Assembly: GCF_963921235.1 (NCBI RefSeq)
Contig: NC_086108.1
Span: forward strand, 59,088,001-59,152,000
Reading direction: 5' to 3'
Source of the DNA: Mobula hypostoma
Taxonomy: Eukaryota
Length of the DNA: 64,000 nucleotides
The notes under the pieces were generated by a model, which was given only the letters and a program-made list of their open reading frames with translations, had not been told where the DNA came from and did no database searches. The translations under genes were made by a program, and so were the position numbers. Positions 6,481-60,672 of the stretch are shown here, in pieces; the stretch's first letter is position 1, and every line of letters starts with the position of its first letter.

Positions 6481-7852
6481 AAGCTTCTCTATAAGTATGA
6501 TTTTTTTAATCACACCAGTGGTTATAGCCTTGCCCCCATTGTTGCAAAAACACATTAAACTGAATTCAGTACTCTAGTTAAGGGGAGCACAAAGTTAATA
6601 CTTGGAGCCCTTTCCTATGCCTTTCATTATCTCGCTGGAAATGTAAATGAGGCAAATCAAATTTTGTTGACAATATCCTATCTCAATAACTTAAGCTGCC
6701 TGATAAAGGAGGAGTTCGTTATGTGACGGATCCCTACCTTCAAAAAGCATATCACTTAAATATTTTTTGCCATTAATTTAGTGCTTACCAAATGTTAGTA
6801 TATAAAAGAATAATCCAAATATATTACAACACTTTATTTCTAAGATTTTATGATGAGATTATTAAGTCCGGAATTAGAAATTATAGCCAGTTTGGAAAAA
6901 ATAGTCATTGTAATAGCATTGTAAATCAGTGGAGGAAAGGAATTGTATGTCCAAATTCTAAATGAAGTTATGCTGAATCAGAGTTAAGGACTCATCACAT
7001 TTAGTGTAAGGGAACTAATAATAATGGAGAAACTAACAGCCCATTCAGTATTCAATGAGATCATACTGCAATGTCACAGCAAAGTCACCAATTTTCCACC
7101 ACCACATTCCCAATAGACGCTACCTGATAACACCTAGTAGTGCTGGAGGTGGGGGAGAGTAGTCATGGAGGTGGGAGGCATCTTCCTTGAATGAGCCTTC
7201 ATGTTGAGGTCCAGTTTGGCAGAAATTGTTAAATCACAATTGGTTGATAACTGGATATGCCTGTTCTACATGCATAATGCTAAGCAACATCACCAAGCAT
7301 GCTACTGCTTTTTGAAACCCGGTGAATATTGTGGCCAGTACAACTAGCACAATGCATATCATGTTGCATAACAAATATTAAACTGTACACAACACAGCAA
7401 CCAAACAGCAGGACACTGAGATCATTCTTTCCTCTTCTGATGCCTGATAATTGCTTCATCAGACTTATTTATGCTCATTTATTGTCATGCCATTTCCTGA
7501 CACTAGTCTGCTCACTGCCGTAACTGTATTGCCATCTGTCTCTTTCTATCTGTTATCTTCTTCTCTCTGTTCACAGATTACTAGGTTCATCCACCAAGGA
7601 TTCAGAGAATAACCAACTATCTTTAAGGATATAAAAGATTATTCAAATAAGCTTATATTCTTAAAAATGCTGTATTTTCCTCTTAAAAGGACAAATTCCA
7701 ATGCTGACAGAAATCTGAGGAGATGTGGTTATCTTTTCTATATTGATGCAGGAGGTAAGAATACAGTTAAAAAATCAAATGCTGGGTGACAGATAGAAAT
7801 TCATAACTGGACAAACAGGAACTTCCACTATTCAATCATAGAATGTGGGAAC

Positions 7853-8064
7853 ACACACCAAGTGCTGGAAGAACTCAGCAGGTCAAGCAGCATCTATGAA
7901 CAGGAATAAAGAGTTGACGTTTCAGCCTGAGACCCTTCATCCTGATCGGGATCATCTTGACTCTTTATTCTTCTCCACAGATGCTCTCTGACTTGCTGAG
8001 TTCCTCCAGCAGTTTGTGTGTGTTGCTCTGGAAGTCCAGCATCTGCAAAACCTCTTGTGTTTAC
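7853..8064 (+). mobile_element. Palindromic miniature PLE derivative (older subfamily)
   Basis: Inverted arms about an axis near 7950; 13-bp TSD AGAATGTGGGAAC at 7840-7852 and 8065-8077; minus-strand core remnant GATGAAGGGTCTCAGGCTGAAACGTC. Confidence 0.8.
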
Positions 8065-8756
8065 AGAATGTGGGAACCAGTATTCCATGCCTGAAAATAT
8101 TGATCCTGTGCTTAATGGATTTCTGACTTAGAGAACAGACTTCCTTTCCTCAAGAATTATAACTGTGATCTATATGGGTGCTAACAACAATCTATTTGGT
8201 CATGAACATATTACAGATATCAGCTTTTTATGCCAGATTTATTTATTTCTGTGCTGTAGTTTCTATGGTTCTATGGTTCTATTATCTTGAATTTAAATTC
8301 CCCAGCTGTTGTGATAGGTTTCAAACTTGGCTCTTGATCAAGAGTCCATACAATTGGAAAATAGTTTAGTAATTTAATCACCAATTATTCATGTGCAATA
8401 GAGAAAAAAGGAAATATTAATTTTCATTCCATAATACAAACATATGGTAAGTTAGTTTCAATACATTGAACCAGAGATCCATGTGCCTGTCCTGATCAGA
8501 GGTGGAGATGGTCAGCAGCTTTAAATTTCTTGGTGTTATCATTTCAGAGGGTCTGTCCTGGGTGGGCACTGACACTAGACACTATTATAAATACAGCATA
8601 CAGTGCCTTTAGTACTGTATTGTATTATGACATACTTTTGTCAGGCTGGTGTCCAAGGCCTTTTTGGTGAAGGAAGGGAATTGATGGAAGTAATTAAGGA
8701 GATATCATGCCAAGTGCCACATGGAGAATAGGTTTTCAGAAGATATCAGTGGTGAT

Positions 8757-17269: not shown

Positions 17270-18550
17270 CAGTGGATTCCAGTAAATCGGGCCATTAGTT
17301 AATTGGGGCAACCACTTATTTGGGACAACTCTTAAAGAACAAAAACTAATCAAGAAAATAGCCAGGATACTTTTCATTTATTTGGTACACCATCCGCTTA
17401 ATTGGGGCAAGTGACTGTTAGCATGCAGTTTCTAACTAGCAATAGACATGTGTTCTGACATGGCTTTAGACACTACACCATACATAGTGACTTTTGACAT
17501 TGATAGTTGGCGAGAAATAAGCAGTGAGATAATTCACAACTGTTTTGAATTGAATTGAATTAGCTTTATTTCTTACATCTTTCACATATATGAGGAGTAA
17601 AAATCTTTACGCTACATCTCTGTCTAAATGTACAAAGTGCAATTTATAGCAATTTGTAATAAATGGTAGTAGTAAATAGTATGTGCAACAGGACAGTCAA
17701 TATAGCATAGAAATAATTGAATTGATCAGACTGATGGCCTGGTGAAAGAAACTGCCCCGGAAACTGTTGGTCCTGGCTTTCATGCTGTGGTACTGTTTCC
17801 CAGATGGTAGCAGCTGGAACAGTTCGTGCTTGGGGTGACTCGGGTCCCCAATGATTGGCAATTGGAAATGCCAGAAATGACCATGAGTGAAAGTGAGGTG
17901 ATTCCACTACTTCAATATGTTAGGAACTATGAAAAACTTGAAGGTATCGATAATCTTCTTGAATGTTATAATGAAAATAAAGATTTGGAAGATGCAATTG
18001 TCTAAAGCACTGTATGAAGGCACTCCAATTTTTTGCATAAACACAAGAAAATCTGCAGATATTAGAAGTCCAAGTAACACACACAAAATGCTTGAGGAAC
18101 CCAGCAGGCTAGGCTGCATCCATGGAAAAGAGTGAACAGTTTACATTGACACTTCATCACAACCCTTCATCACCATGAAGGGTCTCAGTCTGAAGAGTTG
18201 ACTATTTACTCTTTTCCATGGATGCTGCCTGAGTTCCTCCAGCAGTTTGTGTGTGTTACTTCAATATCTGCACAAAGTGTCTGTGATGATATTGTTCATT
18301 TACAGTCAATCAGAAGAACACAACATTGCACACTGGCTGAATCAGTTTTATAGTCCTCTAGTGGTATTGGTAATGTTCAATTTGTTCTGTATTTCATTTA
18401 AATACATAATTTGTTATTCAGTTAAACAGTAGTTTGTGTTTTTTTATACCTTTTTAATTATTTCCATGAAACTTCAGCTAATTGGAGCAGCTGTTTAATT
18501 GGGTCAAAAGGTACTGGGTCCGATGAGTCCCAATTAACCAGAAACTGCTG
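17270..18550. mobile_element. Old pogo/Tigger-like DNA transposon relic with nested LINE tail (~17545-17855) and PLE palindrome
   Basis: TA|CAGTGGATTCCAGTAAATCGGG...CCCAATTAACCAGAAACTGCTG|TA degenerate TIRs with TA flanks; subterminal AATTGGG repeats at both ends. Confidence 0.6.
18039..18257 (-). mobile_element. Palindromic miniature PLE derivative (old)
   Basis: Inverted arms about ~18170 (acccttcatcac-catgaagggt); degenerate TSD actccaattttttgca / acttcaatatctgca. Confidence 0.7.
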
Positions 18551-31743: not shown

Positions 31744-33318
31744 AGATGCTAATATAGTATCCTTTAACGCAACAGCAATTTGTGGATGCTGCTTGATATG
31801 CTGAACATTTCCAGCAATTTGTTTTTGTTTCAGATTTCCAGCACATGCAGCTTTTTGCTCCAGTCATATTGCTGTTATGTGCTTTGCAGCTTTCTTGATG
31901 AATCAAACTATTGATTTTCTTGGTATTATTAATCACGTTTAGGTACAATGATACCCTTCTTGTATTTAATTTGGAACATGCCTCTAAAGTCATCCATTGT
32001 TCATTGCTGGTATATTAGATCTTCTTACACCCCAATTATTCTTCATTAGCTGATAATATAATGTAATTTACTGTGCAACAGAATAAGATGACTATTTGTT
32101 GTTAAATGTTATTAAGGAGTATTTTGTGAATAATCTTCATATGTAAATCAAGATAAGTTGGTCTCATTATCTAGTTCTTTTTTTTTCCACATTTGCTGTT
32201 TGTACTTGCAAGTCAAAAGGGAGTTCTGTTTCTGTACCAGTCCCACTATGATATTTCCTAACTTAGCACCTATTTTATTTTCATTATACAGTACGGGAGG
32301 CATGGATTGCAATCTGAATAACATTCTATCAACTCAGTAGTAGCTCATGTTATATTTTCATTTAAATCACTTTGATCTTTTCTGGGACATCACATAATTT
32401 TATAGCTGCTTTTGATGGAAATCTATTAGACAGATTTAAAGAAAAGTTAAAGAAATTTATACCACTATCTCTTTACTTTTAGATGTAAATAGCCTTTTGC
32501 TAACAATAAACTTCAAGACTTGAGTTATGTTGAACAAAGAACATCATCATGAAATAGTATTTCAATGTCAGCATCCAAACAGCAGGGACTCTCTGAAATG
32601 CGTCAATGCACTCCTACATACTGAGCCTAACAAATATCCTTGTGTATCACCAATAACAACTTACATTTACATTGTACCTTCAACAGAGATGAAGGTACAA
32701 TTTTCCAAAATGCTTTATGGAGGCACTCAAGTCTGAATTCCAAACGAAAGCTGGGTGGATGTGTTAGGAGAGGAAATCTAGCATTCAATCAAAGAAGCTG
32801 GTATAAAGAAATTCCTAGAAGAGGTGAGAGGCAGGAGTATTTAATGTTTTTTTAAGCCTGAAGACCAGGCACACTTGCTGAAGAAGGAACAAGGTATTAC
32901 TAGATGGAATACAGTATCACAAACAAATGCTGAGGGGGCTTAAGTATACATAAGCTAGAAGCTAGAAGATCATCAATGACAGAAATAAATTAATTTGGTC
33001 TGGAAATGACAGAACATTTCTGAGTGAACTTCTGAAGCAAACTGACCAGGAAGGAGAGTAGTAGATGTAAACTGCCTTTATGGTGGGGGGAATATATGAT
33101 TGGAATCATAACTCAAGTTCAAGTAGGACATTGAATCCCCAAGTTCAGCTTGAGATAGTGGGTACCTAAGATGACTAAACTATCAGCCAAGATTTGAGTC
33201 CAGTGAAAGAGGGTGAATAGAATGACTTTTTTCCTTTCACAGCTTTACAAGAAGTGTGCCTTGCTTTGTAGAGTTATTTTCTTTCATTTTAAAGCTAAAA
33301 TAACTCCAATTAGCAAAA

Positions 33319-33510
33319 GGCCAGGCAGCATCTCTAGGAAGAAGTACAGTCGACGTTTCAGGCCGAGACCCTTCGTCAGGACTGATGAAGGGTCTCGGCC
33401 CAAAACGTCGACTGTATCTCTTCCTAGAAATGCTGCCTGGCCTGGTGAGTTCACCAGCAACTTTGATGTGTGTTGCTTGAATTTCCAGCATCTGCAGAAT
33501 TCCTCATGTT
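33319..33510 (+). mobile_element. Young palindromic miniature PLE with back-to-back hammerhead motifs
   Basis: 61-bp inverted arms 33319-33379 and 33382-33442 with a 2-nt spacer, then a tail to 33510; perfect 14-bp TSD TCCAATTAGCAAAA at 33305-33318 and 33511-33524. Confidence 0.92.
33347..33384 (-). ncRNA. Minimal type-I hammerhead ribozyme motif, intact, on the NEGR1 sense strand
   Basis: CAGUC-CUGACGA-AGGGUCUCGGCCU-GAAA-CG-UC^GACUG: 5-bp stem I, complete core, palindromic ACGU in place of stem III; predicted cut between 33352 and 33351. Confidence 0.75.
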
Positions 33511-35849
33511 TCCAATTAGCAAAAACATATTTTTGTTGTCAGCTAAATTGTATTGTTTCCAGGCCAGGATTAACCTTTCACCAAAGTCCTAATCAATCCA
33601 ATATTTTACAAGTAAGATTCCTCCACTTAAATGGCATACATATATTGGTGAATGAACTCTAAGCTTGTCACCATTGGCTGTTTCAATTGCAACAACAATT
33701 TCAATTTATATAGTACCTTTAACATAGCAAAAATAATTTGAAGAAACTAAAAGGTGTATTATATAAAAAAGGAAAAAAAAAGATGCTGAGCATGCAAGGA
33801 AATGTCAGGATAGATGATCAAATATTAGCGATATTGAGAAGCTTTTAAGGAGGAGACATGGTTAGAAAGACAGAAGAGTTTTAGAAAGAAATTCCAGGGT
33901 TTAGAATTTGACAGCTAAAGACACAATTGTGAATGATTTGACTTAGAAACGTGCAGAAATCTAGAATTGGAATAGTAGGAATATCTTGGAGGAAGATATC
34001 TAAGGCTGAAGGAGATTACAAACAATGGGAGGAGTTTGAGAATGTAGATGATAATTTTAAGATTAAGGTGTTAGTTGAGAGTCAGCAAGCATAGAGGCAA
34101 TGGTTGAAAGGGCAGATTGGGAAATGGACAATGTACGTGTTATTGAGGAAAAGGTGGTGCAGAATGAGGTAGGCTGATCAGACATGTATTTAAACAGACG
34201 AGCCTTGATGTATCAAAAGCATGGATGAGGGTTCCAACCCCTGAAATGCTGAGCCAAGGTTGGTTTTAGAACTGGAGTGAATAAACAGTTGCAGTTTAAG
34301 AACTTAAGCTAACTGCTGAATAGGAAATGAAAATTATGGAGTTAACTTAGACAAAGACTTCAACCTTTCCAATATTTATATCAGCAGTTTGATAAGTTCC
34401 AATGGAGACAAGACAGGTGAGTATTAGGTAAAACCAGATGTTGTTAGCATACAAGCACAAAGTATTGTTTTGCTTTGAGATTATGTGGCATAGCAGAGAG
34501 ATGACAATTAGGAGGCACTGGTAGACAACAACTAAATAATAGTATGTAGACTTTAGTTAACATGGAAGAGACAGGACAAAATCTGAATCAGCTTTATTCT
34601 CATTTGCTGTTTTGCAGTAGCAGTACGGTTGAAGACACAAAATTTACTATAATTTACAGCAGTAAATTATAAATAGTGCAAATAGAGGAATAAAAAGGTA
34701 GTGTTCATAAATACATGGATCAGTCAGAAATCTGATAGCAGAGGGGTAGAAGCAGTTCTTAAAAAACTAAGTGTAGGACTCCAGGCTACAAGGAGGGGTA
34801 GATTATCTTTCTCAATCACAATCAGGATGCCATTTGTGACTTTTATCATAGTTCTTTTGGTCCTTTTACTTGAAACATGATTGGAGAGACCCAGACAAAG
34901 GATTTCAAACATGTGAATAGAAGACTAAGCACATTCAAGTACTGTGGAGAGTAAGAGGTGATAATTCAAAGGAATGGAAGAACTAACTACCTCTTTTGAG
35001 TACAGGGGTTCTTATAGCAGATTGGACTGAAATAGGGGGGGATCTGAGGAGGGATAATCAATCAATTACAGCAGCCAACAATCTTAATAGCATTCATCCA
35101 GACCAAGAAAACTTCAAAGTTCTTTGGGAAAAGAGGCATAATTCATAATGATAGGTAAAATATATTTCTTAAGTTTCATCTCAAGGCAGAATCTGGACAT
35201 TTGGAACTGAGAATTATAGCAAATAGGTTTGCCTGTGGTGGACTATTATAAACATTTATAGAATTTTATCCATCATTGAAGTAGTAGACATTTGGGCAGT
35301 GAGTACTTTCAATGCTTGATCATACTGAAGCATGGGGGAATATAAAGTGAGAGTATATAACACGAATGCAAAAAATATTCAAATAGCTTTCATAAAAAAT
35401 ACAAATCATTCTAAATGTATGGCAGATATTCATATAGAAACCAACCCAGTCACTATAGTGTTATGAATCCCACCATAATGGGCACAAAGACCACAGCATT
35501 GCAAAACATGACCTGGATGCACCTAAGGAACATGGAACCTAGGCACCAGTCTTAATGAAGTTTGAGTATCTACTATCTGTGATACTTTGCTCTTCATAGA
35601 AATCTGGGAGAACAAGAAACTCAGATAAGGTACACTTGACAAATAACTTTTTTTCTCAATGTTTTACTATAAAAATCTAGATTTGCACTCCAGAGTATGG
35701 AGGAAGTGCTTTATCATTGAAGGTTACATCCTTCTGACAAGACTTTATACTGAAGCTTTGTGTGCTTTCTCAGATAGATGTAAAAGAGTCCAGTACACTA
35801 CCTCAAAGGAAAACGAGGAAATTATCCCCCCGAACATTTTGACACAGTC

Positions 35850-36130: not shown

Positions 36131-36812
36131 TTCTTCTATCAATATTCCCAAAGCAGATTACTTTGTTGGTTTTGTCACGTTTCCCAACCATCGGGCTCTT
36201 GAACCATAGGGGATAACTTCACTTAACGAAACACTGAACTGTTCCCTCAAGCTATGGACTCACTTTCAAGGACTCTTCATCTCATGTTCTTGATGTTATT
36301 TATTTGCTTGTTTATTAGTTTCTTTATTTGTTTGTTTATTTATTTTTGCATTTGCACAGTTTGTCATCTTTTACAAAGATTGGTTGTTTGTCCATCTCAT
36401 TGTGTGCAGTTTTTCAATGATTCTATTGTGTTTCTTTGCATTTACTGTGAATGCCCACCAAAAATGGTGTTGACATACAGTGCCTATAAAACGTATGCAC
36501 CAACACCAGCCCCCAGATCACCAGAAAAAGACTCTTTCATGTCAAAGTGAAAACAGATCCCTACAAAGTGATCTAAATTAACTGCAAATATAAAACACAA
36601 AATAATTGATTGCGTAAGTATTCACCCCGTCCCCCTTTAGTATGACACACTAAATCATCACTGGTGTAGGGAATTGGTTTTAGAAGTCACATAATTAGTT
36701 AAATGGAGATCACCTGTGTGCAGTCAAGGTGTTTCAATTGATTGTAGTAAAATACACCTGTGTCTGGAAGGTCCAACTACTGGTGAGTCAGTATTCTGGC
36801 AAAAACTACACC

Positions 36813-37828
36813 ATGAAGGCAAATGAACAGTCCAAACAACTACATAAAAAGATTATTGAAGAACACAATTCAGGAGATGGATACAAGAGATTTTGCAAGT
36901 CACTGAATATCCCTTGGAGTAGAGTTAAGTCAATCATCAAGAAATGGAAAGAATATGGCACAGCTGTAAATCTGTCTAGGGCAGGTCATCCTCAAAAATG
37001 GAGAGACCGTGCAAGAAGGGGATTAGTGACAGAGGCCACCAAAAGGTCTATGACAACTCTGGAAGAATTTCAAACTTCAGTGACTGTGATGGGGAAGACT
37101 GTGCAGACAACAACTGTTGCCCAGGTGTTTCAACAGTTGCAGCTTTATGGGAGATTGGCAAAAAGAAAGCCACTGTTGCAAAAAACTCACATGAAATTTC
37201 AGATAGAGTTTGTCAAAAGGCACATGGGAGACTCTGAAGTCAGTGGAAAAAGGTTCTATGGTCTGATGAAACCAAAATTGAGCTTTTTGGCCATCAGACT
37301 GAATGCTATGTTTGGCATAAACCAAACACTGCACATCATCAAAAACACACCATCCCTACCATGAATCATGGTGGTGGCTGCATCATGCTGTGGGGATGCT
37401 TCACTGCAGCAGGCTCTGGAAGGCTTGTGAAGATAGAGGGTAAAATGAATGCAGCAAAATGTGGGGAAATCCTGGAAGAAAACCTGATACAATCTGCAAG
37501 AGAACAACTTGGGAGAAGATTTGTCTTCCAGCAAGACAATGACCCCAAGCATAAAGCTAAAGCTACACAGGAATGGCTTAAAAACAACGAAGTTAATACC
37601 CTAGAGTGGCCAATTCAGAGTCCAGCCCTCAATCCAATTGAGAATTTGTTGCTGGACTTGAAAAGGGCTGTTCACTCACAATCCCCATGCAACCTGACAG
37701 AGCTTGAGCAGTTTTGTAAAGAAGAATGCAGAAAAATTGCAGTGTCCAGATGTTCAAAGCTGATAGAGACCTATCTACACGGACTCAGGGCTGTAACTGC
37801 TGCCAAAGGTGCATCTACTAAATACTGA
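36813..37828 (+). pseudogene. Tc1 DD34E transposase with a single frameshift near 37243
   Basis: HTH region (GYKRFCKSLNIPWSRVKSIIKKW), then WKKVLWSDETK in the shifted frame, QQDNDPKH and SPALNPIEN with 34 residues between D and E. Confidence 0.9.
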
Positions 37829-37975
37829 CTTTAAAGGGGTGAATACTTATGCAATCAATTATTTTGTGTTTTAAATTTGTAATTAATTTAGATCACTTTG
37901 TAAAGATCTGTTTTCACTTTGACATGAAAGAGACTTTTTCAGTGTCAAAAAAGCAAAATTAAATCCCCTGTGATT

Positions 37976-39550
37976 AAAGGGCCAGATGGTCTGCATCCCA
38001 GAGTGCTTAAGGAAGTGGCCCAAGAAATAGTGGATGCATTAGTGATAATTTTTCAAAACTCGTTAGATTCTGGACTAGTTCCTGAGGATTGGAGGGTGGC
38101 TAATGTAACCCCACTTTTTAAAAAAGGAGGGAGAGAGAAACCAGGGAATTATAGGCCGGTTAGCCTAACGTCGGTGGTGGGGAAACTGCTGGAGTCAGTT
38201 ATCAAGGATGTGATAACAGCACATTTGGAAAGCGGTGAAATCATCGGACAAAGTCAGCATGGATTTGTGAAAGGAAAATCATGTCTGACGAATCTCATAG
38301 AATTTTTTGAGGATGTAACTAGTAGAGTGGATAGGGGAGAACCAGTGGATGTGGTATATTTGGATTTTCAAAAGGCTTTTGACAAGGTCCCACACAGGAG
38401 ATTAGTGTGCAAACTTAAAGCACACGGTATTGGGGGTAAGGTATTGGTGTGGGTGGAGAATTGGTTAGCAGACAGGAAGCAAAGAGTGGGAATAAACGGG
38501 ACCTTCTCAGAATGGCAGGCGGTGACTAGTGGGGTACCGCAAGGCTCAGTGCTGGGACCCCAGTTGTTTACAATATATATTAATGACTTGGATGAGGGAA
38601 TTAAATGCAGCATCTCCAAGTTTGCGGATGACACGAAGCTGGGTGGCAGTGTTAGCAGTGAGGAGGATGCTAAGAGGATGCAGGGTGACTGGGATAGGTT
38701 GGGTGAGTGGGCAAACTCATGGCAGATGCAATTTAATGTGGATAAATGTGAAGTTATCCACTTTGGTGGCAAAAATAGGAAAACAGATTATTATCTGAAT
38801 GGTGGCCGATTAGGAAAAGGGGAGGTGCAACGAGACCTGGGTGTCATTATACACCAGTCATTGAAAGTGGGCATGCAGGTACAGCAGGCGGTGAAAAAGG
38901 CGAACGGTATGCTGGCATTTATAGCGAGAGGATTCGAGTACAGGAGCAGGGAGGTACTACTGCAGTTGTACAAGGCCTTGGTGAGACCACACCTGGAGTA
39001 TTGTGTGCAGTTTTGGTCCCCTAATCTGAGGAAAGACATCTTTGCCATAGAGGGAGTACAAAGAAGGTTCACCAGATTGATTCCTGGGATGGCAGGTCTT
39101 TCATATGAAGAAAGACTGGATGAACTGGGCTTGTACTCGTTGGAATTTAGAAGATTGAGGGGGGATCTGATTGAAACGTATAAGATCCTAAAAGGATTGG
39201 ACAGGCTAGATGCGGGAAGATTGTTCCCGATGTTGGGGAGGTCTAGAACGAGGGGTCACAGTTTGAGGATAGAGGGGAAGCCTTTTAGGACCGAGGTTAG
39301 GAAAAACTTCTTCACACAGAGAGTGGTGAATCTGTGGAATTCTCTGCCACAGCAAACTGTTGAGGCCAGTTCATTAGCTATGTTTAAAAGGAAGTTAGAT
39401 ATGGCCCTTGTGGCTACAGGGGTCAGGGGGTATGGAGGGAAGGCTGGGTTCTGAGTTGGATGATCAGCCATGATCATAATAAATGGCGGTGCAGGCTCGA
39501 AGGGCCGAATGGCCTACTCCTGCACCTATTTTCTATGTTTCTATGTTTCT
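37976..39550 (+). mobile_element. Young 5'-truncated CR1 LINE with uninterrupted RT ORF (37970-39454)
   Basis: 494-aa open frame (NYRPVSLTS, YLDFQKAFD, GVPQGSVLGP, FADD); (TTCTATGT)n tail; TSD AAATCCCCTGTGATT at 37961-37975 and 39551-39565. Confidence 0.95.
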
Positions 39551-42465: not shown

Positions 42466-43389
42466 CGAAGTTCAAAGTAAAATTTATTATCAGAGTACCT
42501 ACATGTCACCATACCCAACCCTGGGATTCTCTCTCCTGCGGGCATACTCAGCAAAACTAGAGAATTGTAACTGTAAACCGGATCAGTGAAAGAACAAGAG
42601 CGTAGATGACAACAAACTGTTCAGAATGCAGCTATAAATAAATAGCAATAAATAACAAGAGCATGAAATAACAAGATAAAGAGTTCTTAAAGTGAAATAA
42701 TTGGTTGTGGGAACATTTCAATAGATGAGTGTAATTATCCTCTTTTGTTCAAGAGCTGATGGTTAAGGGGTAGTAACTGTTCTTGAACCTGGTGGTACTT
42801 GTCCTGAGGCACTTGTCCCTGACCCATTGATAAATTCTATATATATTTAAAATATACAGTACTGTGAAATTGTTTTAGGCATCTATATATATATAACTAG
42901 GGTGCCTAAGACTTCTGCACAGTACTGTAGTAAATTTATGTATTACACTGTACTACTGCAGTAAAAAAATTCATGATGTATGTGAATGATGATAAACCTG
43001 ATTGTGATATGGGTTTCTATTGTGGACTGAGAGTGGGAAGGGGGCAGGGAGAAGGGAATCATGGTTAGGAAAAGGGGAAAGCAGAGGGGAGGGAGCAGGA
43101 AGCACCAGAGAGCCATTCTGTAATGATTAATAAACCAATTATTAGGAATCAAATGACCCCTTGCCTGGTGTCTCAGGGCTGGGTGTGTCTGCACCTGCAC
43201 CAATCCCTGCCCCTGACACTTCTTCTCTGCCATCTGTCCCACACCCCTCCCGCGGTACTCTACTTTCACCACTCCCAACATCTTTTACTCTTAAACAACA
43301 CGAATTCTGCAGATGCTGGAAATTCAAGCAACACACATCAAAGTTGCTGGTGAACGCAGCAGGCCAAGCAGCATCTATAGGAAGAGGCG

Positions 43390-43427
43390 CAGTTGACGTT
43401 TCAGGCCGAGACCCTTCGTCAGGACTA
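43390..43427 (-). ncRNA. Hammerhead motif in the inverted PLE arm (stem I closing pair mutated)
   Basis: UAGUC-CUGACGA-AGGGUCUCGGCCU-GAAACGUC^AACUG. Confidence 0.6.
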
Positions 43428-44074
43428 ACTGAAGGAAGAGTGAGTAAGGGATTTGAAAGCTGGAGGGGGAGGGGGAGATGCAAAATGATAGGAGAAGACA
43501 GGAGGGGGAGGGATAGAGCCGAGAGCTGGACAGGTGATAGGCAAAAGGGGATACGAGAGGATCATGGGACAGGAGGTCCGGGAAGAAAGACGGGGGGAGG
43601 GTGACCCAGAGGATGGGCAAGAGGTATATTCAGAGGGACAGAGGGAGAAAAAGGAGAGTGAGAGAAAGAATGTGTGCATAAAAATGAGTAACAGATGGGG
43701 TACGAGGGGGAGGTGGGGCCTAGCGGAAGTTAGAGAAGTCAATGTTCATGCCATCAGGTTGGAGGCTACCCAGACGGAATATAAGGTGTTGTTCCTCCAA
43801 CCTGAGTGTGGCTTCATCTTTACAGTAGAGGAGGCGGTGGATAGACATGTCAGAATGGGAATGGGATGTGGAATTAAAATGTGTGGCCACTGGGAGATCC
43901 TGCTTTCTCTGGCGGACAGAGCGTAGATGTTCAGCAAAGCGGTCTCCCAGTCTGCGTCGGGTCTCACCAATATATAAAGGGCCACATCGGGAGCACCGGA
44001 CGCAGTATATCACCCCAGTCGACTCACAGGTGAAGTGATGCCTCACCTGGAAGGACTGTTTGGGGCCCTGTTTC

Positions 44075-45227
44075 TAGCTATGCCTGCCTTTTTGTTGGGT
44101 TTGTGGAACAATCTATGTTCCGTGCCTATTCTGGTATCTGTCCCCCACTTTTCCTTCGCTACATCGACGACTGCATTGGCGCTGCTTCCTGCACGCATGC
44201 AGAACTCGTTGACTTCATTAACTTTGCCTCCAACTTTCACCCTGCCCTCAAGTTTACCTGGTCCATTTCCGACACCTCCCTCCCCTTTCTAGATCTTTCT
44301 GTCTCTGTCTCTGGAGACAGCTTATCCACTGATGTCTACTATAAGCCTACTGACTCTCACAGCTATCTGGACTATTCCTCTTCTCACCCTGTCTCTTGCA
44401 AAAACGCCATCCCCTTCTCGCAATTCCTCCGTCTCCGCCGCATCTGCTCTCAGGATGAGGCTTTTCATTCTAGGACGAGGGAGATGTCTTCATTTTTTAA
44501 AGAAAGGGTCTTCCCTTCCTCCACTATCAACTCTGCTCTTAAACGCATCTCCCCCATTTCACGTACATCTGCTCTCACTCCGTCCTCCCACCACCCCACT
44601 AGGAATAGGGTTCCCCTGGTCCTCACCTACCACCCCACCAGCCTCCGGGTCCAACATATTATTCTCCGTAACTTCCGCCACCTCCAACGGGATCCCACCA
44701 CTAAGCACATCTTTCCCTCCCCCCCTCTCTCTGCATTCCGCAGGGATCGCTCCCTACACAACTCCCTTGTCCATTCGTCCCCCCCATCCCTCCCCACTGA
44801 TCTCCCTCCTGGCACTTATCCGTGTAAGCGGAACAAGTGCTACACATGCCCTTACACTTCCTCCCTTACCACCATTCAGGGCCCCAAACAGTCCTTCCAG
44901 GTGAGGCATCACTTCACCTGTGAGTCGACTGGGGTGATATACTGCGTCCGGTGCTCCCGATGCGGCCCTTTATATATTGGTGAGACCCGACGCAGACTGG
45001 GAGACCGCTTTGCTGAACATCTACGCTCTGTCCGCCAGAGAAAGCAGGATCTCCCAGTGGCCACACATTTTAATTCCACATCCCATTCCCATTCTGACAT
45101 GTCTATCCACGGCCTCCTCTACTGTAAAGATGAAGCCACACTCAGGTTGGAGGAACAACACCTTATATTCCGTCTGGGTAGCCTCCAACCTGATGGCATG
45201 AACATTGACTTCTCTAACTTCCGCTAG
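44075..45227 (+). pseudogene. 5'-truncated PLE RT (C-terminal half) plus GIY-YIG endonuclease, frame open
   Basis: LRYIDDCI, LPFLDL, YYKPTD; Cys-rich linker CKRNKCYTC (Neptune-like); GVIYCVRCSRCGPLYIGETRRRLGDRFAEH...GMN. Confidence 0.92.
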
Positions 45228-45521
45228 GCCCCACCTCCCCCTCGTACCCCATCTGTTACTCATTTTTATGCACACATTCTTTCTCTCACTCTCCTTTTTC
45301 TCCCTCTGTCCCTCTGAATATACCTCTTGCCCATCCTCTGGGTCACCCCCCCCCCCCGTCTTTCTTCCCGGACCTCCTGTCCCATGATCCTCTCGTATCC
45401 CCTTTTGCCTATCACCTGTCCAGCTCTCGGCTCCATCCCTCCCCCTCCTGTCTTCTCCTATCATTTTGCATCTCCCCCTCCCCCTCCAGCTTTCAAATCC
45501 CTTACTCACTCTTCCTTCAGT

Positions 45522-45559
45522 TAGTCCTGATGAAGGGTCTCGGCCTGAAACGTCGACTG
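45522..45559 (+). ncRNA. Minimal type-I hammerhead ribozyme motif in the PLE 3' pLTR
   Basis: UAGUC-CUGAUGA-AGGGUCUCGGCCU-GAAA-CG-UC^GACUG; predicted cut after 45554. Confidence 0.75.
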
Positions 45560-46256
45560 CGCATCTTTTACTCTTGCCAGATCTACATATTTGCTCTCCA
45601 CTCCACGTTGACAGTACTGTGCAAAAGTCTTAGGCACCCTAGCTGCATATATATGTGCTGGAAGCTTTTGCACAGTGCTATATATATTCCCAGTGTCTCT
45701 TTGGGGACCCTAAGCCTTCGTCTTTGTGCATGGCAATTATTCTTTTTCTATTTCTCTGTAATTTTTCATATGGAATTTTCCATTTGATCAAGGTTGAACT
45801 CCATTTTCCATTAACCAGCCCACCCAGCCAAAACCATTATTTGTGGGCTTAGCACCGACAGGCTGGTTGGAACCAATCCTGCATTAATATACCCATGTCC
45901 AGTGGTGCTTGGGAGGTCCAGTAGTGACTGAACAGCAGGTTTCATGAAGGACACAGTGACTGAGGGAGAAGCTACATTTGTTTTTGAACATGGTTGAAGA
46001 GGCTATTGTAGACCCCTACTCTATCTGCATGTTGCAAGTTACCCATGCCAATTTGTCTTGGTGCCAAAACTGCATAACTTTGACATGTGCATTGTATAAG
46101 GATTTCTGAGAATTTCCTCATTAGTGGGAATAAATCAGAACTAGATTTATTATCACTAATAATACTTTAATACCATAATCATTGATATCACTGTAAATGG
46201 GTGCAGTTTCAGTTGACCTGTGCTCTTTCTGAAAGTGCCTCGTGCTAATTCACATT

Positions 46257-47165
46257 ATAGACAATAGACAATAGACAGTAGGTGCAGAAGAAGGCCATTC
46301 GGCCCTTTGCCATTCACTGTGATCATGGCTGATCACAATCAGTATCCAGTTCCTGCCTTATCCCCATAACCTTTGATTCCGCTATCTTTAAGAGCTCTAT
46401 CCATCTCTTTCTTGAAAGCATCCAGAGACTTGGCCTCCACAGCCTTCTGGGGCAGAGCATTCCATATATCCTCCACTCTCTGAGTGAAAAAGTTTTTCCT
46501 CAACTCCTTTCTAAATGGCCTACCCCTTATTCTTAAATTGTGGCCTCTGGTTCTGGACTCACCCATCAGCGGGAACATGCTTCCTGCCTCCAGCGTGTCC
46601 AATCCCTTAATAATCTTATATGTTTCAATGAGATCCCCTCGCAGCCTTCTAAATTCCAGAGTATACAAGCCCAGTCACTCCAATCTTTCGACATATGACA
46701 GTCCCACCATCCCAGGAATTAACCATGTGAACCTACACTGCACTCCCTCAGTAGCAAGAATGTCCTTCCTCAAATTTGGAGACCAAAACTGCACACAATA
46801 ATCCAGGTGTGGTCTCACCAGGGCCCTGTACAGCTGCAGAAGGACCTCTTTGCTCTTATACTCAATTCCCCTTGTTATGAAGGCCAGCATGCCATTAGCT
46901 TTCTTCACTGCCTGCTGTACTTGCATGCTTGCTTTCAGTGACTGATGTACAAGAACACCTAGATCTCGTTGTACTTCACCTTTTCCTAACTTGACTCCAT
47001 TTAGATAATAATCTGCCTTCCTGTTCTTACCACCAAAGTGGATAACCTCACATTTATCCACATTAAACTGCATCTGCCATGCATCTGCCCACTCACCCAA
47101 CCTGTCCAAGTCACCCTGCATTCTCATAACATCCTCCTCACATTTCACACTGTCATCGGCAAATA
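46257..47165 (-). mobile_element. 5'-truncated CR1 LINE
   Basis: ORFs 46675-47148 and 46339-46668 are highly similar to the 37970-39454 ORF; (TCTATTG)n tail. Confidence 0.9.
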
Positions 47166-49179
47166 TGCTATTATGTGTTCACTTGTTCAAGGTTAGGAAA
47201 GCAGTGAATTCAGTCACTGCTGGATTTCATTATGTAGCTTGCGAAGATCTTTTCTTCTTAGACACTCCCTTAAGACTGAGTAAAACCTGCTTCCTTTCTT
47301 GTTCAGTGGGTTCTGAGATAAGTCAATGTGCAGACTTTGCCACTGCTGAGATGGGTGGCACTTGGCAGAGTGTGTGACTGAGTAGTTTGGGAGTTGGTAC
47401 ACCCCTGTCATATTTGCAGAGCCTCTGTTTGTTACTGAAGCTCAATCGCAAGACTCGCAGTTCAATTCCAAGTGCTCAGTCTCCACTTTGAACAAGCATG
47501 GGCTTGTAACTCCAGGAGTCAGTGGGGATATTGCACCATCTCAAAGGTATTGGTAACATCCTTAAATCTTTTTCTCAGTAACCTGTTCCTTATTGTGATG
47601 GAGGTTAGAATTGTGTCTGTTTTGGGGATCTCCCACTAGAGCCGATTTAAGGTAATTGATGCCTGGGGTGGAGATACAAGAGATGGCACAGGCTGGAATC
47701 TGAAGCAAAAGAAACAAACTTCTGGAAGAACTCAGTGGGTCAAGTAGAATCTGTAGAGACAAGGGGATTACTGACACGTCAAGTATTAATGTTTGGGGAT
47801 GTAGGACTGGAAGAGGATGCTAGCCAGTGGATTTGGAGGATTTCATAGAGGCAGCATCGGTGGCACTATCCCAGCACTTTGGGTCACTTGCTGAACCTAC
47901 CCTGATATTCATAAGCATATCGGAGAAACACAGCTCACTGCTGTGGATTGACCTGCTGGTACTGAGATCTTGATCTGCAAACAGCCTTTTTTGAGATTAT
48001 CAAAGGTTACAATAATGAGGGAGATGCATTCATGGAATGTACATAAGATAATTTTTTCTGGATCTAATGTTATGGAACTAACTGGGGATAAGTTCTGCAG
48101 AAGGAGTTTTAACTTGAAAATGTAGTTGTTTCTCTTTCCATGGATGCCTGTCTGCTAGGTGTTTCCAGCATTTTATTTTTATTTTTACATTATTGGAAAT
48201 GCTCTTTTGGTCTTATTTTGTGCAATGTGAAAGGGCTGATTGATGGTCTTGCTGTCAAGGAGCCTCTGAGAAAGAATGAACGTAATGTTACATTGACAAA
48301 TTCAGTGCAAAGCTAGGGTCTTTGATCTGAACAAAGGAAACCAAAAAGTATGAGCAGAGAGTCAACTGTGGTTGTTTGGGAGAATAAAATTAAAACCATG
48401 ATCTTGGACATGTAAAGCAAAATAAAATGCTTTAGTTGAAAAGGAACTGAAGTTTTAGAGGCACGAAAGCTGAAAAGCGACTGACAAGAGGAAGTATTAA
48501 GTGAAAGGATAGGTCTTATAGAATTGTGGAAAATGCAGCAAGCTTTGAGGTGATTAGAATTCAGCAAAACAGAGTCACAGACTCACATAGCACGGGAGCA
48601 GGCTCTTCAGCAGAACTGTCTATATTGACCAAAATCTCATTTGTCCATATTTGGCCTATATCCTTCTGAAACTTTCTTATCCATGTACCTGTCCAGGTGT
48701 CTTTTAAATGTTGTTAATATGCTTGTCTCAACTACTTCCTCTGGCAGTTCATCTTACATGACACCTCTGGTTGAAAGAGTTGCTTCTCAACTACCTCTTA
48801 AATCTCTCACTCTCACCCTAGACCAAGTTCTTGAATCCCAACCCTGGTAAAAAACTGTGCACATTCCCTTTTCTATGTCCATCATTGCTTTATAAATACG
48901 ATCACCTTCAGTTTTCTACTCTCTATTGACTGAAGTCCCAAAACTTGCATGTAACATCCAAACAATTAAGAATTTATAATGATACATAACTAGGAAGAAG
49001 TAAGTGTGGTCCTTCAGAGAATGAAGTTTTTGAATTAACGACAACAGGCAAAGATATGGCTGAAATGATAAAGAGCTTTTCACAGTGGTGAACATTGCAA
49101 ATAATCCAAAGATAACAGATGGATAATATCAAATAATATGGAGGAAACAGTAAAAGTCTACTCACAATGAGTAGATATA

Positions 49180-52100
49180 GTTTCCCATCCTGGTATGAGA
49201 GGGAAAACAACCAGAAGTCTTAATACATGTTGGTACCAACAACATAGGCAGGAAGGGGGATGAGGTCCTGAAGTGTGAGTTTCGAGAATTAGGCAGAAGG
49301 CTGAAGAGCAGAACCTCAAGGGTGGCGTTCTCAGGATTGCTGCCAATGCTACGTGATAGTGATGTTAAGAACTGGAGGAGATGGCAGTTGAATGTGTGGC
49401 TGAGGAGTGGTGCATGGGGCAGGGTTTTAGATTTTTGGATCATTGGGATCTCCTCTGGGGAAGGTGGGACCTGTTCAGATTGGATGGGTTACAGCTGAAC
49501 TCGAGGGGGAGCAATATCCTTGTAGGTAGGTTTGCTAGAATGGTTCGGGAGGGTTTTAACTAATTTGCAAGGGGGATGGGACCTGGAGCGATAGAGCAGT
49601 GGAAGAAGTGCATGGAGTAAAGCCAGAACTAACATATAAAGAGGCTTTAAGGAAAGAGAAGTAGAATAAAGGGTGTAAAGGTAGTAAGGTAGAAGGGCTA
49701 AAGTGCGTGTGCTTCAATGCAAGAAGCATCAGGAACAAAGGTGATGAACTGAGAGTTTGGATACATACATGGAATGATGATGTAGTGGCCATTACAGAGA
49801 CTTAGCTGGCACCAGGGCAGGAATGGATTCTCAATATTCCTGGATTTCAGTGCTTTAAAAGGGATAGAGAGGGGGAAAAGGGGAGGAGGGGTGGCATTAC
49901 TGGTCAGGGATACTATTACAGCTACAGAAAGGGTGGGTAATGCAGCAGGATCCTCTTTTGAGTCAGTATGGGTGGAAGTCAGGAACAGGAAGGGAGCAGT
50001 TACTCTATTGGGAGTATACTGTAGGCCCCCTGGTAGCAGCAGAGATACCGAGGAGCAGATTGGGAGGCAGATTTTGGAAAGGTACAAAAATAACAGGGTT
50101 GTTATCATGGGTGACTTTAACTTCCCTAATATTGATTGGCACCTGGTTAGTTCCAAGGGTTTAGACGGGGCATAACTTGTTATGTGTGTCCAGGACGGAT
50201 TCCTGTCACAGTATGTGGACAGGCCAACTAGGGGGAATGCCATACCAGATCTGGTATTAGGTAACGAACCGGGTCAGGTCACAGACCTCTCAGTGGGTGA
50301 GCATCTGAGGGACAGTGACTACCGCTCCCTGGCCTTCAGCATTATTATGGAAAAGGATAGAAAAGAGAAGACAGAAAAATTTTTAATTGGAGAAGGTCAA
50401 ATTATGAGGCTATAAGGCTAGAACTTGTGGATGTGAATTGGGATGATATTTTTGCAGGGAAATGTACTATGGACATATGGTCAATGTTTAGGGATCTCTT
50501 GCAGGATGTTAGGGCTAAATGTGGCCCAGTGAGGAAGATAAAGAATGGTAGAGTGAAGGAACCATGGGTGACAAGTGAGGTGGAAAATCTAGTCAGGTTG
50601 AAGAAGGCAGCATACATGAGGTTTAGGAAGCAAGGTTCAGATGGGTCTATTGAGGAATATAGGGTAGCAAGAAAGGAGCTTAAGAAGGGGCTGAGGAGAG
50701 CAAGAAGGGGGCATGAGAAGGCCTTGGCGAGTAGGGTAAAGCAGCGGTCCCCAACCACCGGGCCACAAAGCATATGCTACCGGGCTGCGAGGAAACGATA
50801 TGATTTGGCGATATGAGTCCATATTATTTGATATTATCCATCTGTTATCTTTGGATTATTTGCAATGTTCACCACTGTGAAAAGCTCTTTATCATTTCAG
50901 CCATATCTTTGCCTGTTGTCGTTAATTCAAATCGCCATATCGCACCTTTCCTCATTCCCTGTCACGCCCACTGTTGAGTCATTATGCATGCAAGGTCATT
51001 ACCCGCGCGTCATCCATGTCAGGGCGTGAAGGAGATCAACTCCTCCAGCTTGCAAATGACGACAGGCTGAAAAGTATGTTTGACATAACATTTCCGCCGG
51101 CATTCTGGATCAAAGTCAAGACTAAATATCCTGAGATAGCCATGAAAGCACTGAAAACGTTGCTTTCATTTCCAACATTTTTCTGCGAAGCGGAGTTTTC
51201 TGCAATGAATGCAATGAAAACTAAATTGCGGAATAGACTGGACATAAGGAACCCCCTTCGACTATTGCTGCCTCCAATCACCCCTCGATGGGACCGTCTT
51301 GTTGTAGGAAAACAAGCCCAGGTCTCCCACTGATTCAGCGATATTGGTGTGTTGCAATGATCTTATATGTTCATATGGGGAAAATATGTGCTGTGTGTTT
51401 AATATCCAAATGTTACCTAAAATGTTATGATGCTACTGACTTATATAACCATATAACAATTACAGCATGGAAACAGGCCATCTCGTCCCTTCTAGTCCGT
51501 GACGAACGCTACACTCACCTCGTCCCACCGACCTGCACTCAGCCCGTAACCCTCCATTCCTTTCCTGTCCATATAGCTATCCAATTTTTCTTTAAATGGT
51601 AATATCGAACCTGCCTCTACCACTTTTACTGTAAGTTCGTTCAACACTTACTTCAAGCTCCCCTGTCCTCCCCTGATAATTGATTTATCGCTATATTCAT
51701 GCGAGGAAAATATGCGCTGTGTGTTTAATATTAAATTCATTAGATAAATCCTTTTAGAAACAAAATTGAGTGTATTAGCCACTTATCACCTATATTTTGG
51801 TCGTGATTAACACCCCCCCCGAACAGAATCACCAAAAACGATTTGCAGAAAAAAAAATCGGAAGGTACACGCATGCGCAGGTTACGCATGCACAGTGGTG
51901 CCCGCGCAAGGCTTCATGGTTATTGTAGTCTTTCTCGGCGTAAGCTCAACATATTTTACTGCTACTCTTGTCCGTTGGCAACCCTACCCCACTGCCCCAC
52001 CCCACCCCAGTTGGCTGGTCCACAAGAATATTGTCAATATTAAACCGGTCTGCAGTGCAAAAAATGTTGGGGACCCCTGGGGTAAAGGAAAACCCCAAGG

Positions 52101-53895
52101 TATTCTTCAAGTATGTGAAGAACAAAAGGATGACAGGAGTGAAGGTGGGACTGATTAGAGATAAAGTTCGGAAGATGTGCCTGTAGGTTGTGGAAGTGAG
52201 CAAGGTCTTCAATGAAAACTTCTCTTCAGTACTCACCAATGAGAGGGAACTTGATGATGATGAGGACAATATGAGTGAGGTTGATGTTCTGGAGCATGTT
52301 GATATTAAGGGAGAGGAGGTGTTGGAGTTGTTAAAATACATTAGGGCGGATAGGTCTCCGGGCCCTGACAGAATATTCCCCAGGCTGCTCCATGAGGCAA
52401 TGGAAGAGATTGCTGAACCTCTGGCTAGGATCTTTATGTCCTCGTTGTCCACTGGAATGGTACCAGAGGATTGGAGGGAGGCGAATGTTGTCCCCTTGTT
52501 CAAAAAAGGTAGCAGGGATAGTCTGGGTAATTATAGAACGGTGAGCCTTACGTCTGTGGTGGGAAAGCTGTTAGAAAAGATTCTTAGAGATAGGATCTCT
52601 GGGCATGTAGAGAATCATGGTCTGATCAGGGACAGTCAGCATGGCTTTGTGAAGGGCAGATCATGTCTAACAAGCCTGATAGAGTTCTTTGAGGAGGTGA
52701 CCAGGCATATAGATGAGGGTAGTGCAGTGGATGTGATCTACATAGATTTTCATAAGACATTTGACAAGGTTCCGCATGGTAGGCTTATACAGAAAGTCAG
52801 AAGGCATGGGATCCAGGGAAGTTTGACTGGATGGATTCAGAATTGGCTTGCCTGCAGAAAGCAGAGGGTCATGGTGGAGGGAGTACATTCAGATTGGAGG
52901 ATTGTGACTAGTGGTGTCCCACAAGGATCGGTTCTGGGACCAATATTTTTCGTGATTTTTATTAATGACCTGGATGTGTGGGTAGAAGGGTGGGTTGGCA
53001 AGTTTGCAGACGACACAAAGGTTGGTGGTGTTGTGGATAGTGTAGAGGATTGTCGAAGATTGCAGAGAGACATTGATAGGATGCAGAAGTGGGCTGAGAA
53101 GTGGCAGATGAGTTCAACCCGGAGAAGTGTGAGGTGGTACACTTTGAAAGGACAAATTCCAAGAGAGAGTACAAAGTAAATGGCAGGATACTTGGTAGTG
53201 TGGAGCAGCAGAGGGATCTGAGCGTACATATCCACGGATCCCTGAAAGTTGCCTCACAGGTAGATAGGGTAGCTAAGAAAGCTTATGGGGTGTTAGCTTT
53301 CATAAGTCGAGGGACAGAGTTTAAGAGTCGCGAGGTAATGATGCAGCTCTATAAAACTCTGGTTAGGCCGCACTTGGAGTACTGTGTCCAGTTCTGGTCA
53401 CCTCACTATAGGAAGGACGTGGAAGCATTGGAAAGGGTACAGAGGAGATTTACCAGGATGCTGCCTGGTTTAGAGAGTATGCATTATGATCAGAGATTAA
53501 GGGAGCTAGGGCTTTACTCTTTGGAGAGAAGGAGGATGAGAGGAGACATGACAGAGGTATACAAGATATTAAGAGGAATAGATAGAGTGGACAGCCAGCG
53601 CCTCTTCCCCAGGCACCACTGCTCAATACAAGAGGACATGGCTTTAAGGTAAGTGGTGGGAAGTTTAAGGGGGATATTAAAGGAAGGTTTTTCACTCAGA
53701 GAGTGGTTGGTGCGTGGAATGCACTGCCTGAGTCAGTGGTGGAGGCAGATACACTAGTGAAATTTAAGAGACTACTAGACAGGTATATGGAGAAACTTAA
53801 GGTGGAGGGTTATATGGGTGGCAGGGTTTAAGGGTCGGCACAACATTGTGGGCTGAAGGGCCTGTACTGTGTTGTACTATTCTATGTTCTATGTT
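49180..53895 (+). mobile_element. Near full-length CR1 LINE (ORF1 SGNH-esterase part, APE, RT), interrupted by a hAT
   Basis: HVGTNNIG and DGLQLNSRG (ORF1); NARSIRNK and GDFNFPNIDW (APE); RT 52190-53179 with FADD; (TTCTATG)n tail; frame continues across the hAT TSD (ASRVK|ENPK). Confidence 0.92.
50742..52079 (+). mobile_element. Internally deleted hAT (Buster/Charlie-type) DNA transposon
   Basis: TIRs CAGCGGTCCCCAAC / GTTGGGGACCCCTG; 8-bp TSD GGGTAAAG (50734-50741, 52080-52087) with central TA; dimerization domain FWIKVK.KYPEIA.KALK.LL.FPT...CEA.FS..N..KTKLRNRLD...QAQVSH at ~51030-51333. Confidence 0.93.
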
Positions 53896-60440: not shown

Positions 60441-60672
60441 CAAACCCAAGAGAATCTGCAGATCCTGCAAATATTCAGCAACACAGACAAACTGCCGGAG
60501 GAATTTAGCAGGTCAGGTAGCATCCATGGAGGGAAACAAACAGTTGATGCTTTGGGCTAAGACCCATCATCTGGACTGATGAGGGGTCTTGACCTAAAAC
60601 GCTGGCAGTTCATTTCTCTCCATGCATGCTGCCTGGCCTGCTGAGTTCCTCCAGCACACTGTGTGCGTGTTG
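60441..60672 (-). mobile_element. Palindromic miniature PLE derivative (old subfamily)
   Basis: Inverted arms about ~60572 (acccatcatctgga-ctgatgaggggt); degenerate 15-bp TSD acaaaaccttcaaat / acaaaagctccaatt. Confidence 0.75.

Follow-up and report, generated by a model that had tools for sequence, protein, structure and literature searches.

The question raised by positions 33319-33510 of the window, the 64-kb stretch of Mobula hypostoma DNA that was analysed, is how a palindrome of about 200 bp built from the end of a Penelope-like element (PLE) came to be there, and whether it belongs to a mobile family of its own. A preliminary description of this DNA grouped it with four similar insertions as a distinct non-autonomous class of mobile element made of back-to-back ribozymes. 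We believe instead that these miniature inserts (minis) are an extreme form of known PLE insertion anatomy and not a new class of mobile element. Our main reading, to which we give a probability of roughly two in three, is that minis are severely 5'-truncated PLE inserts in which both ends of the cut target would have been primed on one RNA, with both copies running off where the hammerhead begins.

At 33319-33510 two copies of the PLE terminal repeat are joined head to head as a palindrome between 14-bp target site duplications (TSDs), the right copy (33511-33524, plus strand) matching the left (33305-33318, plus strand) exactly. We number element positions from the A that opens hammerhead stem I (+1) in the natural full-length copy L068, which puts the hammerhead cut site between +32 and +33. 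By sequence and alignment, the short arm (33319-33383, minus strand) covers +1 to about +65 of the terminal repeat, and the long arm (33382-33511, plus strand) covers +5 to +134, including the 30-40-nt PLE tail. The arms are complementary over 62 nt at 90% and overlap by 2 nt of microhomology at the axis (33382-33383), a junction type found at 3 of 50 listed sites. An intact minimal type-I hammerhead motif, with stem I, core, stem II and palindromic stem III, lies at 33347-33383 on the minus strand; it matches our descriptor with a 4-bp stem I, and the predicted cut lies between 33352 and 33351. The complete motif is present on the minus arm only, the plus arm having a mutated core and no stem I. 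These assignments are based on our own descriptor and on Cervera & De la Pena (2014); an Rfam search of the 64-kb window gave no match. The whole insert is predicted to fold as a single long hairpin (-125 kcal/mol) with the hammerhead motif buried inside.

All four palindromes and the single-arm copy that had been described are found in the sequence. Those at 7853-8064, 18039-18262 and 60441-60672 are head-to-head minis of older subfamilies, the last with the same junction type as 33319, and 1330-1426 is a single arm on the plus strand. Flanking TSDs, claimed for all five, hold for 33319, for 7853 (exact, 13 bp, 7840-7852 and 8065-8077) and for 1330 (13 bp with one mismatch, 1317-1329 and 1427-1439), but those of 18039 and 60441 are degenerate, since the TSD finder returned only 8-9-nt remnants with one mismatch. 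The copy at 1330 does begin at the 5' edge of the hammerhead, the point at which it was said to be truncated; its 3' end lies at a short site near +100. Every one of these inserts is composed of PLE terminal repeat as proposed, but a full minimal hammerhead exists among the four palindromes only on the minus arm of 33319, and by our descriptor 7853, 18039 and 60441 have an intact core on neither arm. Among 44 minis that were not selected by their axis, the hammerhead is intact on both arms in 7, on one arm in 11 and on none in 26. The phrase back-to-back ribozymes is therefore right about ancestry and wrong about function; minis are unlikely to be working ribozymes, and we predict that they are dead on arrival. 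One listed copy elsewhere (G000:C1:103023574-103023608) appears to have lost the hammerhead core, so that the two strands of stem I run into each other.

The PLE origin of these inserts is borne out by a parent. Of 40 ORF-containing matches 20 were analysed, and among them was one full-length partial tandem, L068. It begins at -116 with its 5' repeat, and its hammerhead and tail continue directly into the 5' UTR and an ORF of 1016 aa that starts at +171. Because the tail runs into the 5' UTR, what is called the PLE tail is the front of the next unit, an arrangement also seen in Anolis Poseidon (Frangieh 2024). Pfam finds RVT_1 (E 5.5e-5) and GIY-YIG (E 1.1e-3) in this ORF, both weak and under the curated cut-offs, and we find the motifs DKG, YIDD and, at residue 883, CxxxxCxxC; a Pfam search with the PLE fragment of the window alone gave no match. 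Craig et al. (2021, PMC8557442) describe the CxxxxCxxC linker as a feature of Neptune that is also found in Nematis, and the L068 protein, as translated, appears to have a cysteine linker of the Neptune type. We thus find a single ORF with RT and C-terminal GIY-YIG, partial tandems with pseudo-LTRs in L068 and other copies, and a predicted minimal hammerhead in the pseudo-LTR. An inverted 5'-truncated partner and a one-sided 30-40-bp tail are present in 73 of 73 minis, and likewise in long pairs. Judged by parent, tandem, hammerhead and inverted partner, all features of sequence, minis are insertions of an endonuclease-bearing PLE.

A long inverted copy in the window (43293-45561) has the mini layout at a larger scale, with outward-facing arms that end at +134 and +40 and an exact 14-bp TSD (43279-43292 and 45562-45575). 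In the alignment its long-site arm (43293-44070, minus strand) extends from +134 back to about -645, and its short-site arm (44071-45561, plus strand), which holds the C-terminal part of the RT and the GIY-YIG region, extends from about -1450 to +40. The insert at 33319 was said to match this young copy; the two are 88% identical but differ at the subfamily-marking sites +38, +39 and +50, so they belong to one family but to separate subfamilies. In layout, minis grade into long inverted PLE copies and stand at the short extreme of that series. It is this gradation, together with the absence from minis of positions +134 to +300, which are present in short repeating units, that argues against a distinct non-autonomous class.

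Several other loci deserve a brief record. L067 has an open frame of 1222 codons spanning its PLE copy, longer than the ORF of L068, and L057:1501-3069 is a two-armed mini nested in a longer PLE copy. On the minus strand of G000:C50 at about 59034669-59035341 (L100) there are two PLE units, each starting at +2, joined with a 2-nt overlap, the first extending into the ORF to about +595. We rejected a tandem with a 6.2-kb period (G000:C64:52794859-52819489, L051-L055) as a PLE array; it consists of five repeated blocks, in each of which the same truncated, inverted copy recurs. The window also holds other repeats. Transposase fragments between 105-bp inverted repeats (36524-37940) are presumably Tc1/mariner-like, judging by their translation. 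LINE RT fragments at 37928-39454, 52187-53652 and 46675-47178, one with an open frame of 508 aa, we take to be CR1/L2-like. A perfect 114-bp inverted repeat (49029-49142 and 50818-50931, 1.7 kb apart) adjoins a fragment (50926-51333) that we assume to be hAT-like, and a fragment at 5864-6349 seems to us to resemble a Helitron/PIF1 helicase.

The genome-wide search for further copies that the preliminary description proposed was productive. A 36-nt tail pattern has 55,132 exact matches in the genome (control 0) and a head-to-head junction pattern 6,733 sites (control 1,171). Two-armed minis occur at 22 of the 80 loci that cover the first 86 tail matches on C1, and extrapolation from this 80-locus sample gives about 14,000 minis with one exact arm in the genome. 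The 264 kb around the window contain 48 clusters, 17 of them two-armed, at about twice the mean density of the genome (8 exact matches against about 4 expected). There are tens of thousands of minimal PLE products in this genome, and their value is as evidence of mechanism.

It is important to ask whether so many copies could descend from a few masters. We assembled 73 minis (75 rows less one spurious row and the duplicate of the window); the set is not random, as 29 of the 73 were found through similarity to the 33319 axis. The TSD is 13-14 bp in 51 of them and 13-15 bp in 58, not TA or 8 bp. Junctions read by eye at the first 50 listed sites fall into about 33 types among the 47 that are readable. 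The diverse junctions and 13-14-bp TSDs therefore exclude a DNA MITE, as had been anticipated, and make a few masters unlikely for most copies. In place of the fixed termini, single master and short transposase-type TSD of a DNA MITE we see asymmetric, variable ends and diverse axes. A self-propagating miniature family, whether a retro-MITE or a DNA MITE from few masters, or long palindromes that collapsed after insertion, we regard as highly improbable. In its favour, the commonest junction occurs 6 times among the 50 listed sites and L224 and L226 have their axis in common; yet recurrent types have overlaps of 1-4 nt, so microhomology explains the recurrences, single arms begin at the same point as paired ones, several subfamilies are involved and there is the continuum with long copies. 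Recurrent independent generation, claimed from the five copies of the window, is thus supported by the junction types. Since L224 and L226 share the whole inverted structure including the axis within unrelated flanks, some hairpins may have spread secondarily.

The ends of the arms follow a strict rule. Every mini pairs one end at a long site (+123 to +146) with one end at a short site (+54 to +107), in 73 of 73; long/long or short/short pairs number 0 of 73, and single arms end at either site. The short-arm endpoint was described as variable, but 68 of the 73 short-site 3' ends fall at +86 to +107, and the end of 33319 at about +65 is an outlier. With the 13-14-bp TSDs, this combination of one long and one short end favours priming at both ends of a staggered cut, which had already been suggested.

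The same suggestion placed the two primings on two separate RNAs held together by a palindromic hammerhead dimer, each RNA serving one cut end. The minimal hammerheads are of the type that forms dimers (Cervera & De la Pena 2014, PMC4209133), a duplex of two RNAs has a predicted fold of -32 kcal/mol that is, however, no clean hammerhead dimer, and 4 of 69 pairs are discordant at +50. But equivalent RNAs predict long/long and short/short pairs, of which there are none. Arms of a pair mismatch at three subfamily sites in only 6 of 56, 5 of 64 and 4 of 69 cases, against about 40% when shuffled, and the +50 discordance is at the level of background divergence. At two CpG sites the arms of a pair differ as often as unrelated arms. 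From subfamily agreement with independent CpG decay it follows that the two arms matched when they were inserted and that no homogenisation took place afterwards. Two RNAs from one active source would give the same subfamily agreement. Pairs that mix a mini arm with a long arm number 3 of 64 against 26 expected; these 64 pairs are 71 rows less four spurious rows of L058, one duplicate, one nested and one doubtful row, and small loci undercount long pairs in this set. The coupling of arm lengths could alternatively reflect simultaneous synthesis. Frangieh (2024, PMC11167929) reports that catalytic mutants of the hammerhead leave in vitro insertion unchanged, the mutants described there having an unmutated palindrome. 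Taken with the insertion-specific ends that arms share in 12 of 14 cases, discussed below, the length rule leaves two dimer-tethered RNAs quite unlikely.

A single RNA does not by itself mean two primings, since a cDNA could snap back and copy itself. Such self-priming has been argued for the palindromes of rotifer PLEs (Arkhipova 2013, PMC3846280), and here some junctions with overlaps of 3-4 nt and near-perfect centres, and arms alike at insertion, would suit it. However, a second arm made by fold-back must nest within the first, and at least 12 of the 64 pairs are not nested: the short-end arm extends further 5' and the long-end arm further 3', as in L148, L162, L172, L212 and the window copy at 43293. 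Which arm reaches further 5' varies: among about 18 long pairs judged by eye it is the short-site arm in about 12 and the other in about 6. The ends of the short arms also coincide with a second initiation site that single arms use too. On these alignments fold-back is excluded for non-nested pairs; it may account for a minority of copies, and as a general explanation we give it very little credence.

The other ends of the arms, which meet at the axis, are where truncation is recorded. For 86 consecutive tail-matching arms, six of which had their start adjusted by eye, the rate of stopping per base comes to 0.0035 at +52 to +30, 0.0057 at +29 to +10, 0.020 at +9 to -8, 0.0052 at -9 to -29, 0.0021 at -30 to -99 and 0.0014 beyond. 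The 5' ends of arms therefore peak at the 5' edge of the hammerhead, near +2, at about ten times background, and the non-random axis reported from the window is supported. While 34,025 arms match exactly to -14, another 14,932 lack the reference base there; the first 100 listed of these, read by eye, start at +3 (10), +2 (25), +1 (14), -1 (10), -2 to -7 (27) and -8 to -12 (9), with 5 reading through. Allowing for mutation and chance with a correction of our own, we estimate that about 30% of the arms reaching +3 stop within 16 bases. The edge is soft, with a shoulder to about -12 and some arms stopping at -20 to -28, and in older subfamilies too the axes fall in this zone. We rejected the hammerhead cut site (+33) as the main RNA 5' end, as the excess of starts there is small and by a rough normalisation about ten times below that at +2; among the first 100 listed of 2,309 arms without the reference base at +26, read by eye, +33 is the start of about 10-13 and +30 that of about 11-14.

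What the edge represents can be asked of the bases around it. Right before the hammerhead, L068:430-453 and window 45506-45526 have a branch-point-like motif, a pyrimidine run and two AG, bases that would also suit an initiator and that can form an imperfect pairing with +5 to +15. The promoter and intron of Drosophila Penelope have been described (Schostak 2008, PMC2377424). If the edge were a 3' splice site, minis would be copies of spliced RNA, and the branch-point-like motif at -21 to -15, the pyrimidines and the AG at -4/-3 and +1/+2 are what such a site needs; the intron of Drosophila virilis Penelope has its 3' boundary where helix I starts (Cervera 2014, PMC4209133). We nevertheless find splicing very doubtful. 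The 3' UTR is pyrimidine-rich throughout, a recurring upstream exon is absent among the 100 listed starts, and 15 of 29 single arms have their TSD within 6 nt of the called start or overlapping it (of the others, 4 have 11-28 nt to the TSD, 1 is mis-mapped and 9 have no TSD inside 400 nt). We lean slightly towards the RNA 5' end being a transcription start at the initiator-like motif of +1 over its having been trimmed back to stem I by a nuclease. We set aside a DPE-like motif at +28 to +33, as it is one base off and is accounted for by the hammerhead core.

The edge might also be a pause. The RT would stall on a long template at the hammerhead or at an imperfect hairpin from -14 to +15, and repair would join the stalled cDNAs. 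Folding predicts this hairpin, the peak has shoulders on both sides, four listed junctions use the complementarity of the hairpin, and some second passes of the RT (6 of 26) stop in the zone. Against this, the peak lies in the loop of the hairpin and not at its 3' base, and older subfamilies, judged by eye, keep the axis despite having only a weak hairpin. Stops are, moreover, specific to the insertion and common to both arms, as seen in longer copies.

There are 707 copies that extend beyond the tail into the ORF, of which we examined 70. In 38 of the 70 the copy ends between +176 and +786, and most are then followed by another unit. Read as cDNA, such serial units suggest that the RT, on arriving at a 5' point, switched to another one further downstream, with landings at +200-212 in 7 of 33 and at +255-345 in 21 of 33. 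Jump-type insertions with an inverted partner number 14, counting L224/L226 as one; some of their ends were read by eye. In 12 of the 14, the stop of the partner arm lies no more than 12 nt from the end of the first pass (shuffle mean 3.1), as it does in 8 of 10 insertions without a shared jump (shuffle mean 3.3). The shared ends span +1 to -225, and the partner never passes the first-pass end. In L261 three passes stop at one point, as do two in L277; two insertions are discordant, L228 (-1395 against -1129) and L230 (-849 against -122). Ends that are shared within an insertion and specific to it argue against a pause intrinsic to the sequence, which would give one position throughout, and against two unrelated RNAs, which would not end alike. 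In long-ORF copies, 6 of 26 second passes stop at -29 to +52, compared with 45 of the 86 first passes (p=0.013), where the 26 are 8 long-ORF copies (L068 included and one early-stopping copy excluded) plus 18; this is a further, modest argument against pausing, which on balance we think unlikely. The shared-end evidence comes from 14 jump-type insertions, and from these we infer the same for all minis. In three jump junctions (L241, L264, L276) the end is exactly +1. Such ends fit a start at the initiator-like motif, with ordinary joins losing one base, and exonuclease trimming to stem I fits them too.

Among these loci are also PLE-derived units of 300-430 nt (from about -15..-120 to +260..+330), arranged head to tail in twos and threes, on G000:C1 at L215, L217, L224-L226, L231-L234, L238, L242 and L263. 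Some of their junctions recur within an insertion (L215, L231) or across unrelated flanks (L224/L226, L233/L234). By their structure these tandems look like nascent retrozyme families.

Our main reading would work as follows. A GIY-YIG/RT dimer would nick both strands of the target with a stagger of 13-14 nt. One subunit would start near +133 and the other near +100 of the same RNA, the trailing one displacing the cDNA of the leading one. The bound RNA would often be a short one, beginning at +1 or a little before it and finishing at +200 to +340. Both cDNAs would run off, lose a few bases and have their 3' ends joined via microhomology, a single-arm mini being the outcome when one priming fails. 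Long copies would need a template without an end at the hammerhead edge, such as a circular RNA or a tandem one, or else a jump by homology into the 3' repeat. We read the stagger of the cut, the dimer, the displacement of strands and the ends of the RNA back from DNA products. A stronger version, to which we give a little less than even odds, holds that an asymmetric RT-endonuclease dimer sits on a single short RNA (from the edge to about +200-340) and copies it twice, from two fixed starts, onto the two ends of the staggered break. Anything longer would take a jump, by homology or end to end, comparable to retroviral strong-stop transfer, and minis would be a genome-wide fossil record of PLE integration. 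If true, this one scheme would account for the tails, inverted repeats and partial tandems of PLEs and also for how retrozymes arise. Two familiar systems have parts of it. In L1 twin priming a second priming starts from the other target end and gives inverted pieces that do not overlap, and retroviral strong-stop DNA is a short cDNA that runs off the 5' end of the RNA. Second-end priming and run-off are thus alike, whereas the arms of a mini copy one and the same stretch.

Within the PLEs the architecture of minis is itself already known; the features that the papers we found leave unexplained are the long-plus-short rule, the peak at the edge and the shared ends. Both the inverted partner and the restriction of the tail to one side belong to the usual PLE anatomy (Craig 2021, PMC8557442; Arkhipova 2013, PMC3846280; curation guide PMC8969392), and endonuclease-bearing PLEs as described in these sources have the same head-to-head arms, tail at one end, TSD, partial tandems and junction palindromes (PMC8557442, PMC3846280). 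Minis differ in that the whole insert is about 200 bp, in being present in tens of thousands of copies, in their peaked axis and in a tight TSD of 13-14 bp, against 8-10 bp in rotifer PLEs (PMC3846280). The mechanism behind the inverted repeats and tail is called undefined by Craig et al. (2021, PMC8557442). In the literature we searched, which excluded subscription papers, Dfam and Repbase, there is no account of miniature head-to-head PLE inserts or of double priming on one RNA. Cervera & De la Pena (2014, PMC4209133) describe in Schistosoma pairs of minimal hammerheads, one on each strand and separated by 100-700 bp, along with many solo motifs that stem from truncated PLEs, and the minimal hammerheads of PLE terminal repeats are of the same motif type as those in minis. 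Human UCON13 is classified as Penelope. There is a risk in annotation that hairpins such as these are mistaken for DNA MITEs or genes for structured RNAs.

Non-LTR retrozymes are likewise non-coding, hammerhead-bearing and derived from PLEs (Cervera & De la Pena 2020, PMC7229834), with a mean of 363 bp in chondrichthyans (Li et al. 2026, bioRxiv 10.64898/2026.07.22.740005). Our 300-430-nt repeating units resemble them (PMC7229834; 10.64898/2026.07.22.740005). Minis do not, for retrozymes as described are head-to-tail tandems in which each unit has an intact hammerhead, whereas minis are head-to-head, less than one unit long and rarely intact on both arms. A close system is Poseidon of Anolis in vitro (Frangieh 2024, PMC11167929), where the RT has two internal start sites a tail length apart, both strands are cut and extended, a dimer is predicted, unprocessed RNA is a substrate and truncating the template at its 5' end gives a shorter product. 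Minis and Poseidon agree in starts that lie beyond the hammerhead, where the ORF region begins, in extension of both strands and in cleavage being dispensable; they differ in that the one is an in vitro system of the Poseidon clade and the other is known here from genomic DNA (PMC11167929). The ends of minis predict one RNA, two sites, both strands and run-off at +1/+2, a prediction well suited to the Poseidon system.
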